DNA of 64,000 nucleotides, taken from Candidatus Jacksonbacteria bacterium RIFCSPLOWO2_02_FULL_44_20 (GTDB lineage: Bacteria > Patescibacteriota > Patescibacteriia > UBA9629). The notes below the pieces were generated by a model. It was not told the origin of the DNA. It did no database searches and saw only the letters and a list, made by a program, of their open reading frames with translations. This document shows, piece by piece, positions 3,902 through 49,694 of this stretch (position 1 is its first letter; every line of letters begins with the position of its first letter). The position numbers and the translations under genes were made by a program. The stretch is taken from the NCBI GenBank assembly GCA_001818155.1, contig MHJU01000036.1:3615-67614 (forward strand), read 5' to 3'.

Positions 3902-4824
3902 TTTTCCAAAAGTCCGCGCATAAATTGGTAGCTCCCGGCGCATGCTCGTTTTAAGCGTTTTTTGTTGATTGTTGAGATAGTAAGAGTCTGAAAGTGAGGG
4001 GCGACGACTGCGGTCCGTATGTTTTCAGTTTCTTCAATGCAATTCAGAGCCTTTTCGTATGCCTGATCGCGGTTGAAAAATGTCGCGGCAAATCGCTCTC
4101 CGTATTTTCTAAGTTCTACCGCCTCAATAAACGACGATACTCTTGATGCGCGACGCGGCCGTTCTCTTGGCCGAGTAAATAAAATCAGAATGTCTGTGCA
4201 CCCGTCATCAATAGCTTTACGGACGAGAAGATCGTTGATAGTGCCGCCGTCCAGATAGCGGTTGCCTTTTATTTCAATCGGTTTATCATAAAAAATCGGG
4301 AGCGCGCAACTTGCTTTAATTGCGGTTAAAATGGAGACATTATCGCGACTGCTTATATAATGCTGTTCGCCGGTTGTTATATCAGTTGAGGCGATTATAA
4401 GTTCAGTGGCGTTGCATTTCAACGCAGAGATGTCCAATTTTCGTTTATATTCTATAATATTTATAAGATAATCAATGTCAAATTTGGGCGGAATCCGAGC
4501 GAGATTTATGAACTTTTCTGTCGCGAGGTCTTCATAATAAATTGCTATTCCGTACGGGATTTGGCCTGACAAAAAAAAGGCGCCGCTAAGAGCGCCAGCA
4601 GAGGTTCCGTAAACAATGTCAAAAATTTCAGCGCCAAGGCTTTCGTGTAGCGCAACGAGCATGCCTCCCGCAATGATCCCGCGCATACCGCCTCCTTCAA
4701 TAATAAGCCCGAATTTTCGTCCGTCGTCCTTTGTTTCACGGCGCTTCCGCTCTTTTAATAACTCCAGCACGCCGTCCGGATTTCTGCCAAAAATCGTAAA
4801 ATTTGGGTCAGAAAATGAGCTCAT
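3895..4824 (-). CDS. Patatin-like phospholipase
   Basis: GGGMRGIIAGG (GGGxRG oxyanion motif) and GTSAGAL (GxSxG nucleophile) are present, with a DGG motif downstream. Confidence 0.75.
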   Translation of the reverse strand: MSSFSDPNFTIFGRNPDGVLELLKERKRRETKDDGRKFGLIIEGGGMRGIIAGGMLVALHESLGAEIFDIVYGTSAGALSGAFFLSGQIPYGIAIYYEDLATEKFINLARIPPKFDIDYLINIIEYKRKLDISALKCNATELIIASTDITTGEQHYISSRDNVSILTAIKASCALPIFYDKPIEIKGNRYLDGGTINDLLVRKAIDDGCTDILILFTRPRERPRRASRVSSFIEAVELRKYGERFAATFFNRDQAYEKALNCIEETENIRTAVVAPHFQTLTISTINKKRLKRACAGSYQFMRGLLENY

Positions 4825-5547: not shown

Positions 5548-5623
5548 GGGCATATAGCTCAGCGGTTAGAGCACCACTCTTATAAAGTGGGGGTCGATGG
5601 TTCAAATCCATCTATGCCCACCA
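5548..5623 (+). tRNA. tRNA-Ile with a UAU anticodon (tRNA-Ile2-like body)
   Basis: Acceptor gggcata/tatgccc, anticodon stem ccact/agtgg, loop cttataa giving anticodon TAT. GTTAGAGCA in the D-arm and GGTTCAAATCC in the T-arm resemble ileX-type tRNAs. Confidence 0.7.
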
Positions 5624-27184: not shown

Positions 27185-27760
27185 ATGAACCTCATTCCAA
27201 CTGTCATAGAAAAAAGCGCTTATGGCGAACGTGCATATGATATTTACTCCCGATTGCTTGAAGAACGCATTGTTTTTCTTGGAACACCGATTACGGACAT
27301 GGTTGCAAATTCAGTAATCGCGCAACTGTTATTTTTGGATTCAAAAAGCAACGAAAAAGATATTAAACTCTACATCAACTCGCCCGGGGGATCGGTTTCT
27401 GCCGGGCTTGCCGTTTACGACACAATGCAGTATGTGAAGAGCGATATCATGACAATATGCGTGGGAATTGCGGCGTCCATGGGAGCAACTCTTCTTGCCT
27501 CTGGCGCAAAAGGTAAACGGCTCGCGCTTCCAAACGCAGAAATTTTAATCCACCAGGTAATGGGCGGCGCAGAGGGACAAGCCGAGGACATTAAAATCTC
27601 CGCCGAGCACATTCTGTCCATTCGCGACCGATTAAATAAAATTCTTGCTCATCACACCGGCCAGCCGATGAAAAAAATTTCCAAAGACACTGACCGCGAC
27701 TATTATATGAACGTGGAAGAAGCAAAAACGTACGGAATTATTGATAAAATAGTGAAATAA
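27185..27760 (+). CDS. clpP: ATP-dependent Clp protease proteolytic subunit
   Basis: [21 protein letters not shown], and active-site GIAASMGA. Confidence 0.9.
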
Positions 27761-27761
27761 T

Positions 27762-27899
27762 ATGCCCAAACGCACATTCCAACCGTCAAACATACGACGC
27801 AAACGCACGCACGGTTTTCGCAAGCGCTCCAGTTCAAAAACTGGGAGACAGGTATTGAAACGAAGAAAATTAAAGGGGAGAAAAAGGTTGACTGTTTAA
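27762..27899 (+). CDS. rpmH: 50S ribosomal protein L34. It falls below the ORF-track length cutoff.
   Basis: Translation is [45 protein letters not shown], and rnpA follows immediately. Confidence 0.85.
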
Positions 27900-27916
27900 C
27901 GAACGAGCGTCCTCCA

Positions 27917-28267
27917 ATGCTCCCAAAACCTAATCGTCTGTCTGAAGAATATGATTTCCGCCGCGTCATTGCAAAAGGACGCGCTTTTTTTATTCGCGAA
28001 TGCGGAATTAAGATATTGCGAAACTATAAGAACCAACCAACACGCATCGGCATTGTTGTGCCAAAAAAAATTACAAAAACTATTGTTAAACGCAACAAAA
28101 TCAAACGCCAAGCCAGGCACATTTTCCTGAAATTTCTTCCCTTTCTTGCTCAAGGGTACGACATTGTGCTTTTAGTAAGGGAAAGTTTTATTGATTTAGA
28201 ATTTGAGGAAAAAGAGAAAAAAATTGGATACCTGCTTACAAAAACAAAAATTCTCGCGCGCCAATGA
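27917..28267 (+). CDS. rnpA: RNase P protein component
   Basis: LPKPNRLSEEYDFRRV, RIGIVVPKK, and NKIKRQARHIF (RNR motif region). Confidence 0.8.
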   Translation: MLPKPNRLSEEYDFRRVIAKGRAFFIRECGIKILRNYKNQPTRIGIVVPKKITKTIVKRNKIKRQARHIFLKFLPFLAQGYDIVLLVRESFIDLEFEEKEKKIGYLLTKTKILARQ

Positions 28268-28644
28268 TAAACTATAATAAAAAATTCGGCGCATACGGAG
28301 AAGAGCTCGCGAGTAAATTCCTCTTAAAGCGCGGCTACACTATTATTCAAAAAAATTTCTCTTCAAAATACGGAGAAGTTGATCTCATCGCTATCCACCC
28401 GGGCGAACCGGATACCATCTGTTGTATTGAAGTGAAAACGCGGACAACAGACGAGTTTGGCGCTCCGGAGGAAGCGATCACGCGGGATAAAATCAAAAAA
28501 CTGCATGACACCGCGTGCAGTTATTTTTTTCAAAATAGAATTGAAAAGAAAATTTTTCGGCTTGATGTTATCGCAATTACAATTAATACATACGCAAAAC
28601 GCGCGCGCATCAAACACTTAAAAGCCATCGGGGAGGAGTGGTAG
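28264..28644 (+). CDS. yraN: YraN-family (UPF0102) endonuclease-like protein
   Basis: AYGEELASKFLLKRGYTIIQKNF...GEVDLIA...IEVKTR. Confidence 0.7.
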   Translation: MINYNKKFGAYGEELASKFLLKRGYTIIQKNFSSKYGEVDLIAIHPGEPDTICCIEVKTRTTDEFGAPEEAITRDKIKKLHDTACSYFFQNRIEKKIFRLDVIAITINTYAKRARIKHLKAIGEEW

Positions 28645-28670
28645 AAAATCCGCGCTGTTCAAAAAATTTT

Positions 28671-28695
28671 GGGATGTTCCACTAAATTCTGTTGA
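28671..28695. repeat. Left terminal inverted repeat of the IS
   Basis: Exact 25-bp inverted match to 29732-29756. Confidence 0.8.
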
Positions 28696-29665
28696 TATTT
28701 CCGTTGCAAATCACGTATCTCTTTAAGCGAAGAAAAGCAGTGGCTCGAAGCAATACCGATTGTGGTGTGCGTGCCGTTCTTGTCGCCCGACGCACCATTC
28801 GACCGGTCGATTCAATGGCGCTCGTGGTCGTCGGCAAATGCAGGCTTGGATAACGCAGATATGTTTGAAAGTCCTGCTCGCGTTCCAGAAATTCCAGAAC
28901 TTGTTTGCGGATATATGGCGGACAGACAAGGCGGTTAATGAGCACTCGAAGAATTTTTCTAGCCTGCTTGAGAACGCGCTCATTTCGAGAACCCAGGATC
29001 ACTCTCGTTGCTTCCAGTATCTTGTCGCGAAGATTACTGCTTCGTATCCGGTATCGCCGCTTGCCTTTGCCGCGCACAAGAGTTGCGAGAAGGTGAAAAT
29101 GACATCGCTGGTGTTGCCAACGGTTCTGTTCCGAAAGAAGCTGTGAACCCCTGAATCCATCGGAAACAAAGGCAGAAACACGATTTTTCACGTTCAGTGG
29201 AATAGTGGCAACCGCCCTCACCCACCGCTCATAGCATTCCCGCCCCTCGAACAACACTGGATCGAAAAAATATGCTTTGTGGCCGCAAGCGGGCTTTACG
29301 GCCATGAGATACATAACCCATTCTCTGCGCTTGAATTTGAAGTACAGACCGTCGCCCAAGAGCGCATATGGCCCGCGGGGAAGGCGTTTGAGCGGATGTC
29401 CGGCGGCAATTGCCCGCATGGCTTTGACATAGCGTGAGGCAATGCCGCTTTTGGAAAGACGAATATACCTTTGTTCTTGGACAATCGTGTATTGTTCAAC
29501 AAGTATCCGCTGAAGCAGCGAGATGGCATGACGTTTGCGCTTTCGCCCCCGCCGTTTCTTCCGAACGCTCCATGTATGTTTGCAGACGTTGCACTGCCTG
29601 CGACGTTTGCCGAAACGATTTATGCTCCCTCGGCAACAAGGAGATTTCGCGTGTTGTGTGGCCAT
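28682..29665 (-). CDS. Transposase, probably a single-ORF IS1-family enzyme (fused InsA-like zinc finger and InsB-like catalytic domain).
   Basis: N-terminal zinc finger CCRGS...RRQCNVCKHTWSV (compare IS1 InsA C.HCRKTW). Later VSDGFRGSQ resembles TDGW..Y, and TSAIESTGRMVRRATRTARTPQSVLL..ATAFLRLKRYV resembles T..IER.N..LRQH.AR..RK..FSK. Its stop codon lies inside the left IR. Confidence 0.6.
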   Translation of the reverse strand: MATQHAKSPCCRGSINRFGKRRRQCNVCKHTWSVRKKRRGRKRKRHAISLLQRILVEQYTIVQEQRYIRLSKSGIASRYVKAMRAIAAGHPLKRLPRGPYALLGDGLYFKFKRREWVMYLMAVKPACGHKAYFFDPVLFEGRECYERWVRAVATIPLNVKNRVSAFVSDGFRGSQLLSEQNRWQHQRCHFHLLATLVRGKGKRRYRIRSSNLRDKILEATRVILGSRNERVLKQARKILRVLINRLVCPPYIRKQVLEFLEREQDFQTYLRYPSLHLPTTTSAIESTGRMVRRATRTARTPQSVLLRATAFLRLKRYVICNGNINRI

Positions 29666-29731
29666 ACACGCGAACTATGGCACGAAAATACCGATTTGAT
29701 TTGAAAAAGAGCCGCTTTTCTTTACTTGGCG

Positions 29732-29756
29732 TCAACAGAATTTAGTGGAACATCCC
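29732..29756. repeat. Right terminal inverted repeat of the IS
   Basis: Exact 25-bp inverted match to 28671-28695. Confidence 0.8.
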
Positions 29757-29896
29757 AAAAGTTTTCTTTCATACTTGGTGGCCGATAATTGATAATGCGC
29801 GAACCAATTTTGAGCGAAACGCCGCAGGTGTTTCGCAAAGTCCCAAACTGCTCGGGCGGGGCGGGAATTCCCTTCCCCTTCAACCCATTTCCTGTT

Positions 29897-29972
29897 TGGT
29901 GGACCCGAGCGGGATCGAACCGCTGACCTCCGCATTGCAAATGCGATGTTCTACCAACTGAACTACGGGCCC
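29897..29972 (-). tRNA. tRNA-Ala(TGC)
   Basis: Reverse complement gggcccgtagttcagttggtagaacatcgcatttgcaatgcggaggtcagcggttcgatcccgctcgggtccacca: the G3:U70 alanine identity pair and anticodon loop tttgcaa. Confidence 0.85.
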
Positions 29973-30070
29973 ATTTTGCTCTTTCTACAACCCGATTATA
30001 TATATCATAGGTATTTATATTTTGGTAGATGAACTTGTTATTCAATGGATTTCAACGCGATTTTTTGTGA

Positions 30071-30107
30071 AAATAAAAATCCCCCGTAAACCGGGGGATT
30101 TTTTTGG
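30071..30107. terminator. Bidirectional rho-independent terminator
   Basis: aaaaaaaat-ATCCCCCG-taaac-CGGGGGAT-ttttttt: an 8-bp GC-rich stem flanked by an A-run and a T-run. Confidence 0.6.
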
Positions 30108-30112
30108 CCTAA

Positions 30113-30328
30113 CTAGAATCGTCTTCGTGGGCCACTCGGGCGGTTGCCTCTGCGGTCACGATGACAATTGCGGCAATAGACCGGGCGGGTTCCATCTGGT
30201 TCAAACGGGAGTTCGGTGATTGCCTCACCGCACTGTGCGCATGTCCAATTTCCTTGGAACATCTGACGTGGAGCAAAACCCTGTTGGCCATAACTTTGTT
30301 GCTGGCCGAAATCTTTTTGATCGTCCAT
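30113..30328 (-). CDS. Small zinc-ribbon protein (CxxC...CxxC) with a Q-rich N-terminus and an R-rich C-terminus.
   Basis: WTCAQCGEAITELPFEPDGTRPVYCRNCH. The terminator immediately downstream supports a real gene. GC-rich. Confidence 0.45.
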   Translation of the reverse strand: MDDQKDFGQQQSYGQQGFAPRQMFQGNWTCAQCGEAITELPFEPDGTRPVYCRNCHRDRRGNRPSGPRRRF

Positions 30329-30488
30329 TGTGATGACCTTTTGATGTACTTTGCTTGAGATAAGATGTAAAAGGTCTCCATGTTTTGCTTATAAAGCAAA
30401 CGTACGGCAGATGATTTACGAAACTACAACTCAAAACAAAATACTTACATTATGTCGTATAGAATAGCATAACAGCAAGACTGTGTCA

Positions 30489-30514
30489 ATTATGTTCATG
30501 GACTTGAACATAAT
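30489..30514. promoter_or_regulatory. Perfect 10-bp inverted repeat (ATTATGTTCA-tggact-TGAACATAAT), a candidate operator upstream of the ECF sigma promoter.
   Basis: Exact palindrome 17 bp upstream of the -35 element. Confidence 0.35.
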
Positions 30515-30530
30515 GTGTATATTATAACTA

Positions 30531-30558
30531 TTGACTTATTTTTATTTTATGGTATAGT
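30531..30558 (+). promoter_or_regulatory. Sigma70-like promoter (TTGACT, 16-nt spacer, TATAGT) upstream of the ECF sigma gene.
   Basis: ttgact at 30531-30536 and tatagt at 30553-30558; the CDS starts at 30605. Confidence 0.4.
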
Positions 30559-30604
30559 GTAAGCCACTTTAAGTAAGGAATGCCCATAAAAAACGTCATC
30601 TTTT

Positions 30605-31111
30605 ATGAAATTATCTTCAGTACGGGAGAAAAAATTCACTGATGCGTATAATTCGTATAGTGACGCTCTATTTCGGTTTTGTTTTTTCCGCATATTTGAC
30701 CGCGAACGAGCCAAAGAACTGATGCAGGAGGCTTTCACCAGAAGCTGGGATTATGTAAGGCGCGGAAATGACATCAAAAATATCCGCGCGTTTCTTTATA
30801 AAACAGCCAGACATCTTATTATTGATGAGGCGCGAAAGAAGAGCAATGCTTATAAAGAAGATATTGATACATGCGAAGAACGCCTTGCTGTACCGGCTAA
30901 ACAAGAATTAGATATAGATATCGGACTCGCTTATGACGCGCTTAAAAAACTAGATGAACCCTGCCGCGAAGCCGTTACGTTGCGCTTTGTAGAAGGTTTT
31001 TCACCTAAAGAAATCGCGGCGATGGTTGGGGAATCGGAAAACGTAGTTTCGGTTCGCATCCATCGCGGAATTCTAAAACTTCGCGCGCTTTTGCTTCACA
31101 ATGACCCATAA
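30605..31111 (+). CDS. RNA polymerase sigma-70 factor, ECF subfamily
   Basis: Region 2 (AFTRSWDYVRRGNDIKNIRAFLYKTARHLIIDEARKK) and region 4 HTH (FSPKEIAAMVGESENVVSVRIHRGILKLR). Confidence 0.8.
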   Translation: MKLSSVREKKFTDAYNSYSDALFRFCFFRIFDRERAKELMQEAFTRSWDYVRRGNDIKNIRAFLYKTARHLIIDEARKKSNAYKEDIDTCEERLAVPAKQELDIDIGLAYDALKKLDEPCREAVTLRFVEGFSPKEIAAMVGESENVVSVRIHRGILKLRALLLHNDP

Positions 31112-49617: not shown

Positions 49618-49694
49618 GGGCGCGTAGCTCAGCTGGTTAGAGCACGTCACTGATAATGACGGGGTCGGAAGTTCAAATCTTCCCGCGCCCACCA
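49618..49694 (+). tRNA. tRNA-Ile(GAT)
   Basis: gggcgcgtagctcagctggttagagca, anticodon stem cgtca/tgacg, loop ctgataa, encoded CCA. Confidence 0.85.

Follow-up and report, generated by a model that had tools for sequence, protein, structure and literature searches.

The closest described system to the element analysed here is ISCth4, an IS256-type insertion sequence (IS) of 1,503 bp with a 47-kDa transposase (PDB 6XG8, 6XGW and 6XGX; family models PF00872 and NF033543). In this transposase, D175, D241 and E348 form the Asp-Asp-Glu (DDE) triad and C262xxH265 is the CxxH of the insertion domain (PMC7780238). ISCth4 makes 8-bp A/T-rich target duplications, and both IS256 and ISCth4 transpose by copy-out/paste-in (for ISCth4, PMC7780238). 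Here, we describe an element in a 64,000-nt stretch of contig MHJU01000036.1 (hereafter the window) from Candidatus Jacksonbacteria, a lineage of the Parcubacteria in the Candidate Phyla Radiation (CPR). Our results support a model in which this element is very probably an intact, recently transposed IS of 1,086 bp whose compact DDE transposase (327 aa) belongs to the IS256/Mutator type.

Like ISCth4 and IS256, the element has a single open reading frame (ORF), terminal repeats of ~25-31 bp and an 8-bp A/T-rich duplication, and its catalytic residues match those of ISCth4, its best structural match, one to one. In contrast, the two transposases are only 12-16% identical, that of the element has 327 rather than about 400 residues, a zinc ribbon and a short helical region occupy the N-terminus where ISCth4 has dimerisation and NDB domains, and the target preference, AAA(A/T)NTTT, is much stricter. 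The nearest curated descriptions, compared by NCBIfam model scores only, are NF048019 (IS256 Zn-binding variant) and IS1249 (NF033544), which are likewise compact (the NF048019 profile has 304 positions) and likewise place an N-terminal zinc module before an IS256-type core, but the scores lie far below the cut-offs, the best distant relative reaching 46 bits with NF048019 and relatives at most about 27 bits with NF033544. Mutator-like elements (MULEs) and the hAT element Hermes share with it a DDE core with a helical insertion and C/DxxH. The protein of the element (OGY72399.1, locus tag A3H61_03715) is named 'hypothetical protein' by NCBI, and the UniRef label on the identical protein is 'MULE transposase domain-containing protein'; MULEs, however, are eukaryotic, much larger and move by cut-and-paste. 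Their target duplications are typically 9-11 bp long.

A complete insertion sequence at a polymorphic site

The repeat GGGATGTTCCACTAAATTCTGTTGA at 28671-28695 is exactly inverted at 29732-29756, as an earlier note on this DNA had described, and with up to three mismatches allowed it was matched in the window only at those two places (0 in 100 shuffles). The parts of the element are as follows.

28671..29756, minus strand (that of the transposase gene): complete insertion sequence, 1,086 bp, delimited by perfect 25-nt inverted repeats and by empty-site comparison
29732..29756, minus strand: terminal inverted repeat IRL on the ORF-upstream side, with the tip GGGAT(G/C) and the subterminal ATTYKGTTGA, both conserved in relatives
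28671..28695, plus strand: terminal inverted repeat IRR on the ORF-downstream side, which holds the last four transposase codons and the stop codon
28682..29665, minus strand: transposase ORF, 327 aa (ORF call), ending inside the downstream repeat
28663..28670, no strand: target-site duplication copy 1, AAAATTTT, from BLAST of empty-site loci
29757..29764, no strand: target-site duplication copy 2, AAAAGTTT, with G at 29761 where the empty site has T

The inverted match remains perfect over 29 nt (28667-28695 / 29732-29760) and reaches 97% over 34 nt. The earlier note had placed the element at 28667-29760, with terminal repeats of 25-29 bp; the match holds, but its outer bases belong to the palindromic target duplication (AAAATTTT) and not to the element, because the empty-site comparison shows them there, and the true span is 28671-29756.

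The exact YraN protein was looked up in public assemblies. At all ten places among the matches listed, ~867 bp separate yraN from the downstream sigma-factor gene, compared with 1,961 bp in the window. The flanks in these ten contigs are 99.2-99.98% identical to those in the window (BLAST) and align in two blocks, one ending at 28670 and the other resuming at 29757, and the missing sequence is exactly 1,094 bp, the sum of the 1,086-bp element and the 8-bp duplication. Eight bases of the empty-site query (nt 4400-4407) align at both junctions (28663-28670 and 29757-29764). The empty site reads gttcaaAAAATTTTtctttcat (in its longer context ...gctgttcaaAAAATTTTtctttcatacttgg...), and all ten sites hold a single clean AAAATTTT with no excision footprint, which is most simply taken as the ancestral state. 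The comparison with the uninterrupted yraN / tRNA-Ala junction that the earlier note had called for thus finds ten near-identical contigs that lack the element.

The filled allele, including the G at 29761, is present in at least four independent assemblies (the window and the loci L014, L047 and L048; L numbers denote loci throughout). Copies with no mismatch over the 1,086 bp lie between other flanks in L011-L013, which come from some of the same samples that contain the empty yraN site. The element is intact and recently mobile, recent movement following from the occurrence of identical copies with other flanks in the same metagenomes, and near-identical genomes differ in whether the yraN site is filled or empty. 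Empty sites, identical copies elsewhere and an intact ORF make the description 'recent and probably active', given in the earlier note, well supported as a reading of sequence comparisons.

The same note had allowed for an assembly artefact. That the insertion is such an artefact, or else a dead, immobile relic, is scarcely credible to us: short-read assemblers do mis-join flanks over a 1,086-bp repeat, as seen in the fold-back flanks of L045 and in L039 and L049, where the yraN junction is paired with other flanks, but both junctions in the window keep the colinear order of the empty-site contigs and recur in L014, L047 and L048, the ORF is intact with all invariant residues, the repeats are perfect and identical copies exist.

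Several individual copies deserve mention in their own right. The IS in L049 (695-1780) is a mosaic, its 25 differences falling into clusters at nt 26-74 and 634-721, and L049 joins the yraN junction to the flank of L038; in L039, the yraN junction is paired with a third flank, and in L045 the two flanks are mutually inverted. All three loci point to recombination between copies, or else to short-read assemblies that are chimeric at the repeat. L038 itself contains a remnant (about 1515-1598) reduced to ~85 bp, comprising the IRL end and the 5' untranslated region. Flanked by tRNA-Leu(cag) and a gene for a small membrane protein, this remnant attests to the decay of an older copy. A candidate miniature inverted-repeat transposable element in L009 was rejected, the apparent extra 134 bp being a run of N (a scaffold gap).

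A compact transposase of probable IS256/Mutator type

The assignment of the transposase rests on its conserved residues and on profile and structural comparisons with ISCth4. The relevant parts of the protein are listed below.

29567..29653, minus strand: N-terminal zinc ribbon, residues 5-33 (C10, C11, C25, C28), from conservation, the structure model and hhalign to InsA
29351..29353, minus strand: catalytic D105 (first D), invariant, aligned to ISCth4 D175
29159..29161, minus strand: catalytic D169 (second D), invariant, aligned to ISCth4 D241
29093..29104, minus strand: C188-x-x-H191, start of the helical insertion domain, invariant, aligned to ISCth4 C262/H265
28811..28813, minus strand: catalytic E285 in LPTTTSAIES, invariant, aligned to ISCth4 E348 in TTNTIES

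In 39 diverse relatives, with identities down to 25%, D105, D169, C188, H191 and E285 never vary, nor do C25 and C28, and C10 is nearly invariant. An AlphaFold2 model built on the family alignment (predicted local distance difference test score 83) places in order a zinc ribbon, three helices, a beta1-3/alpha/beta4/alpha/beta5 pattern of the RNase H type, an all-helical insertion and the helix that carries E285; the ribbon itself is modelled as three short strands (residues 15-33). The predicted parts of the protein thus include an InsA-type zinc ribbon, a helical region resembling a helix-turn-helix (HTH) and an alpha-helical insertion domain with CxxH (C188/H191). When the model was compared with the PDB by Foldseek, the top five matches were chains of the ISCth4 transposase (E 5e-9 to 6e-6, ~300 aligned columns). 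Consistently, ISCth4 was the sole significant PDB match of a profile of the 39 relatives (E 7e-6), direct alignment by hhalign gave a probability of 94.9%, and in both the profile search and hhalign D105, D169, C188xxH191 and E285 pair with D175, D241, C262xxH265 and E348. In NCBIfam, the IS256 model NF033543 matches the window protein with E 4e-6 (26 bits) and 38 of 40 relatives, the best with 2.7e-10. NF048019 matches 15 of the 40 and the Pfam Mutator model PF00872 (Transposase_mut) 17 of the 40; the alignment of the window protein to NF048019 (17.5 bits) begins at the zinc finger and spans residues 17-198 on profile positions 14-175. There is also a weak, sub-threshold NCBIfam match of the window protein to ISH6. 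Single-sequence PDB searches returned no significant match for the window protein and none at all for a relative encoded in L034, and a first, shallow family profile (A1) found nothing meaningful in the PDB, the more diverse profile (A2) alone reaching ISCth4.

Several observations weigh against this assignment or against the reading of recent mobility. No curated model is passed: the 26 bits for NF033543 compare with a cut-off of 150 bits, and relatives reach at most about 45 bits (the cut-off is also 150 for NF048019, and 300 for NF033544). PF00872 does not match the window protein, for which Pfam as a whole gives nothing. IS256 family elements are ~1.2-1.5 kb long with transposases of ~340-420 aa (ISfinder range), and the element, at 1,086 bp and 327 aa, lies below both, as it lies below ISCth4 (1,503 bp, 47 kDa); the 8-bp duplication is within the 8-9 bp of the family, whereas the length is outside its range. 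The N-terminal DNA-binding module is unlike that of ISCth4. The subterminal TGTAAA noted for IS256 members is absent from the GGGATGTTCCACTAAATTCTGTTGA repeats; for this motif we follow Dodd et al. as they are cited in PMC7780238. Finally, the two copies of the target duplication in the window agree at 7 of 8 bases, neither circle junctions (abutted repeats) nor tandem copies were found in 49 loci, and mobility is read from sequence comparison.

Relation to IS1

The earlier note had called the element IS1-like, with an InsA-like zinc finger fused to an InsB-like catalytic region in one 327-aa ORF between the repeats. The ORF is as described, with the quoted motifs in place (CNVCKHTW at residues 25-32, VSDGF at 167-171 and TSAIES... 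from 281). The two halves of the label fared differently when InsA and InsB from IS1A of E. coli K-12 were aligned to the family profile with hhalign. InsA gave a probability of 73.6% (E 2.9e-5) over 32 zinc-finger columns that include both cysteine pairs and KTW, CPSC...CSHCRKTW of InsA lying over SPCC...CNVCKHTW of the element. InsB gave 0.7%; VSDGF and TTSAIES are instead the second-D and E motifs of a DDE domain of the IS256/Mutator type. The likeness of the zinc finger to InsA is moderate, since the Pfam domain Zn_Tnp_IS1 is itself unmatched: the window protein (E<=1) and 40 relatives (E<=0.01) lack both it and DDE_Tnp_IS1 (PF03400).

We therefore regard it as highly improbable that the element is a single-ORF member of the IS1 family in which an InsA zinc finger is fused to an InsB DDE domain. 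With IS1 (E. coli IS1A) it does share the finger C-x2-C ... C-x2-C-x-K-T-W, the small size and a duplication of ~8-9 bp, both 1,086 bp and 8 bp fitting the IS1-family ranges of ISfinder, and one of about 50 relatives scanned (P0266, among ten more distant ones) matches the IS1 NCBIfam model NF033558 with E 2e-4, below its 100-bit cut-off. The catalytic domain, on the other hand, is unrelated to that of IS1 at a testable level and contains a helical insertion with CxxH as in ISCth4, IS1 Pfam domains are missing from the window protein and the 40 relatives, and the top structural match is ISCth4 and no IS1-like protein. The organisation also differs: in place of the insA-insB frameshift or a fused equivalent there is one uninterrupted ORF, the C-terminal two thirds of which are IS256-like. 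Because the zinc finger is InsA-like but the catalytic region is not InsB-like, a more fitting label than 'IS1-like' is 'compact IS256/Mutator-type with an IS1-style zinc ribbon'.

Duplicated target bases and site preference

The other copies and the empty sites, both of which the earlier note had proposed to look for, define the target-site duplication as 8 bp. Perfect 8-bp duplications flank the relatives in L015, L021, L022, L030, L031, L044, L046, L057, L058 and L061. In L031 (GAAATCTA), L030 (ATACATAT) and L022 (TAATATTT), they occur at sites that are not A/T sites and abut GGGATG...CATCCC, and therefore the element ends and the 8-bp stagger are fixed for the family; the duplication in L021 is AAAACTTT. 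Two other ways of delimiting the element were rejected. A longer element that includes the conserved flank (AAAANTTT, sometimes ATGA... or ...CTTTTGCCC) is contradicted by the empty site, which natively has those bases, by a size difference of exactly 1,086 + 8 and by the distant relatives, whose non-A/T 8-bp duplications directly abut GGGATG. A parsing with no duplication, for example a 1,094-bp element with CTTTT and AAA, fits the low-complexity site without mismatch and was set aside on homology.

Among 39 distinct flanks from the Patescibacteria clade, A occupies positions -8 to -6 in 34-37 and T positions -3 to -1 in 33-38, which makes AAA(A/T)NTTT the strongly preferred target. The window holds 73 sites of this form, and it is therefore a preference and not a single address. 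Farther out, sites that are otherwise unrelated share ...TTCATAAG... on one side and ...CTTTTGCCC... on the other.

Of about 19 loci inspected, 6 have a family copy 30-224 bp downstream of a tRNA gene, measured from its 3' end. These tRNA genes are the following.

Window, 29897-29972: tRNA-Ala
L015, 4220-4306: tRNA-Ser(gga)
L017, 2340-2426: tRNA-Leu(taa)
L018, 1483-1570: tRNA-Ser(tga)
L021, 2799-2872: tRNA-Lys
L038, 1293-1380: tRNA-Leu(cag), beside the IS remnant

Taking the high tRNA density of the window as a basis, ~3% of loci would be expected to show this adjacency by chance (binomial p ~2e-5). The adjacency could reflect targeting, or else insertions could have survived where a compact genome offers its few neutral spacers. 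One flank (AAAAATTTCTTTTGCCCTTCC...), downstream of tRNA-Ser, abuts four family members, which share 100%, 77%, 74% and 58% protein identity with the copy in the window (L012, at the IRR-end flank; L018, 1383-1480; L015, 3996-4110; L061, 1473-1492), and L012 and L018 have ~80 nt of identical flank in common. This recurrence suggests that the flank is a repeatedly used hot spot.

The mismatch in the duplication

The duplication in the window is broken by the G at 29761, where all ten empty sites have T. In the direction of the element, the flank reads ...AAAACTTTT|GGGATG, or ...GAAAACTTTT|GGGATG in a longer reading, and flanks containing C (AAAACTTT / AAACTTTT, again toward the element) recur beside relatives in L016, L017, L018, L021, L026, L038, L041 and L042. 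In this direction, positions -4 and -5 hold 11 C compared with 3 G (binomial p ~0.06). About half of the complete loci have central mismatches between their two flanks, much of which could be due to assembler mispairing over the identical 1,086-bp repeat or to recombination between copies. Because contigs can mispair flanks (L039, L045 and L049), we do not rely on the imperfect duplications at other loci; the difference in the window is real, since its flanks were verified as colinear.

The dull explanation of the G at 29761 is a point mutation after insertion. A speculative alternative is that it was carried over from the flank of the donor, an idea that draws on the absence of this G from the ten empty sites and the recurrence of the C-containing flank in relatives. 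Such carry-over might proceed through a circle-junction spacer of 5-8 nt that would be left as a 5' flap after integration and would anneal to a look-alike target within its 8-nt gap before being ligated; alternatively, gene conversion between copies could run into a look-alike flank. In its widest form, the idea would make this lineage a sequence-directed 'safe-site' element of streamlined CPR genomes that picks a palindrome of the AAAATTTT type, often downstream of a tRNA gene, and carries along four to five end-adjacent donor nucleotides, a picture that we think unlikely.

A proposed transposition route

By analogy with IS256 and ISCth4, we propose that the zinc ribbon and the helical/HTH region would bind the subterminal ATTYKGTTGA of each repeat and that the GGGAT tip would be placed in the DDE active site. 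One cleaved end with a 3'-OH would then attack the flank of the other end to give a figure-eight, replication would yield a double-stranded circle with abutted repeats and a spacer of 5-8 bp, for which the expected junction is GGAACATCCC-N(5-8)-GGGATGTTCC, and the circle would integrate through 8-bp staggered cuts. In the window, the element has entered the AAAATTTT site 26 bp downstream of yraN and has duplicated 8 bp.

Because no circle junction occurs in the 49 loci, the copy-out/paste-in route is based on homology only, and on that basis we consider it reasonably likely, in preference to cut-and-paste. A cut-and-paste mechanism like that of eukaryotic MULEs would be compatible with the missing circle junctions and with a transposase that is as distant from those of IS256 and ISCth4 (12-16% identity) as many MULEs are. 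It nevertheless appears improbable, given that all ten empty sites are single and free of an excision footprint, that the presence of identical copies at several sites within the same samples is in keeping with replicative spread, and that copy-out/paste-in is the route of IS256 and ISCth4, the bacterial relatives that have been characterised.

The family and its distribution

A word-indexed search returned 614 proteins at E<=1e-3 among 1,705 candidates, and nearly all of the best 120 of the 614 are unnamed or 'hypothetical' and lie on contigs of ~1.0-1.5 kb, a length expected since a multi-copy repeat breaks assemblies. When 1.84 billion representatives were searched exhaustively with a profile, 400 clusters (50% identity) were obtained at E<=1e-3, 348 of them at 1e-10; fragments aside, almost all of these proteins have 320-335 aa. 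As the exhaustive search stops at 400 clusters of near-uniform length, the family is discrete by sequence and, at the sensitivity of HMMER, stays apart from the bulk of IS256 proteins. In species-representative genomes, it is found mainly in Patescibacteria (Doudnabacteria, Uhrbacteria, Yanofskybacteria, Parcubacteria and bins labelled Saccharibacteria), with a few cases in WOR-3 and one in Steroidobacteraceae. A tblastn search of 72,556 plasmids gave no match, and literature searches for IS256 in the Candidate Phyla Radiation or for IS1249 with zinc found no papers.

Elements of the family are 1,084-1,099 bp long, except for a deleted copy of 982 bp in L046, and the stop codon of the ORF is inside the downstream repeat. 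The ends follow the bipartite consensus GGGAT(G/C)-N8-A(A/T)TT(C/T)(G/T)GTTGA, obtained by a search free of regular expressions and then tabulated, part of the tabulated pattern being imposed by the search expression.

We class the element as a compact zinc-ribbon variant within the Mutator/IS256 superfamily that may be a group or family of its own. A stronger version holds that it is a separate IS family or group in the superfamily, sister to the 'IS256 Zn-binding variant', IS1249 and ISH6, which works in the same way as IS256 but stands outside IS256 proper and would merit a separate family name. We regard this as plausible, though on the whole somewhat doubtful. Every curated model is missed by a wide margin, the weak matches are scattered over IS256, IS256_Zn_var, IS1249 and ISH6, element length (~1,086 bp) and repeat consensus are uniform, and the 400 clusters at 50% identity, almost all of 320-335 aa, do not spill into the IS256 bulk; yet ISfinder family boundaries are conventions, and the element has the fold and catalytic signature of IS256/ISCth4 as well as their 8-bp A/T-rich duplication.

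In four loci, a gene of the Y1_Tnp type (PF01797; IS200/IS605- or RAYT-like) lies ~100 bp from a 58%-identical relative of the IS (L057, 716-1402; L058, 267-917; L059, 716-1402; L060, 175-861). Their left flank is constant and their right flanks differ, and the combination may be a larger mobile unit or the result of an IS-mediated rearrangement.

Genomic setting in the window

The element lies in the spacer between the convergent yraN and tRNA-Ala genes, 26 bp past the yraN stop codon and 140 bp from the tRNA 3' end, with the following neighbours.

28264-28644: YraN/UPF0102 gene (Pfam PF02021)
29897-29972, minus strand: tRNA-Ala(tgc), also the only Rfam match in 27500-30700

These are the neighbours given in the earlier note, which had in addition let the element interrupt an rpmH-rnpA neighbourhood; it sits in the yraN/tRNA-Ala spacer instead. 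The clearly higher GC content stated there is a real but mild difference, 50.5% in the element compared with 45.3% in the remaining window, 7.9% of equal-sized windows being at least as GC-rich. Apart from the tRNA, the Rfam scan of 27500-30700 gave nothing, and a promoter/terminator scan of the element region was no better than shuffles.

Two observations concern the wider window. Between tRNA-Ala and the extracytoplasmic function (ECF) sigma-factor gene, a gene at 30113-30328 (minus strand) encodes a 71-aa protein with two CxxC pairs (Pfam PF23477, zf_Tbcl_2, according to the NCBI record) and is kept in all empty-site contigs. At 5548-5623, beside tRNA-Val, there is a tRNA-Ile with the anticodon TAT (UAU), and a second tRNA-Ile(GAT) is at 49618-49694. 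In bacteria, tRNA-Ile(UAU) is uncommon, AUA usually being read by a lysidine-modified CAU tRNA.

Significance

Altogether, our analysis corrects the label of this element from an IS1 relative to a Mutator/IS256-type IS with an IS1-style zinc ribbon. Its basic biology, that of a DDE IS with an 8-bp duplication, is conventional, and the element is of an ordinary type from a poorly catalogued lineage: the family is coherent and uncatalogued, comprises ~400 clusters at 50% identity that are mostly 'hypothetical protein' in the sources, and is captured by no curated model. With 1.09 kb and 327 aa, the element is smaller than the characterised IS256-type elements with which it was compared, and its minimal architecture together with the AAA(A/T)NTTT preference could aid the study of end and target recognition by IS256-type transposases. 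For Candidatus Jacksonbacteria and the CPR, it represents an apparently active IS whose filled and empty alleles coexist in groundwater populations, and it is thus a marker of strain-level variation in these uncultured bacteria.

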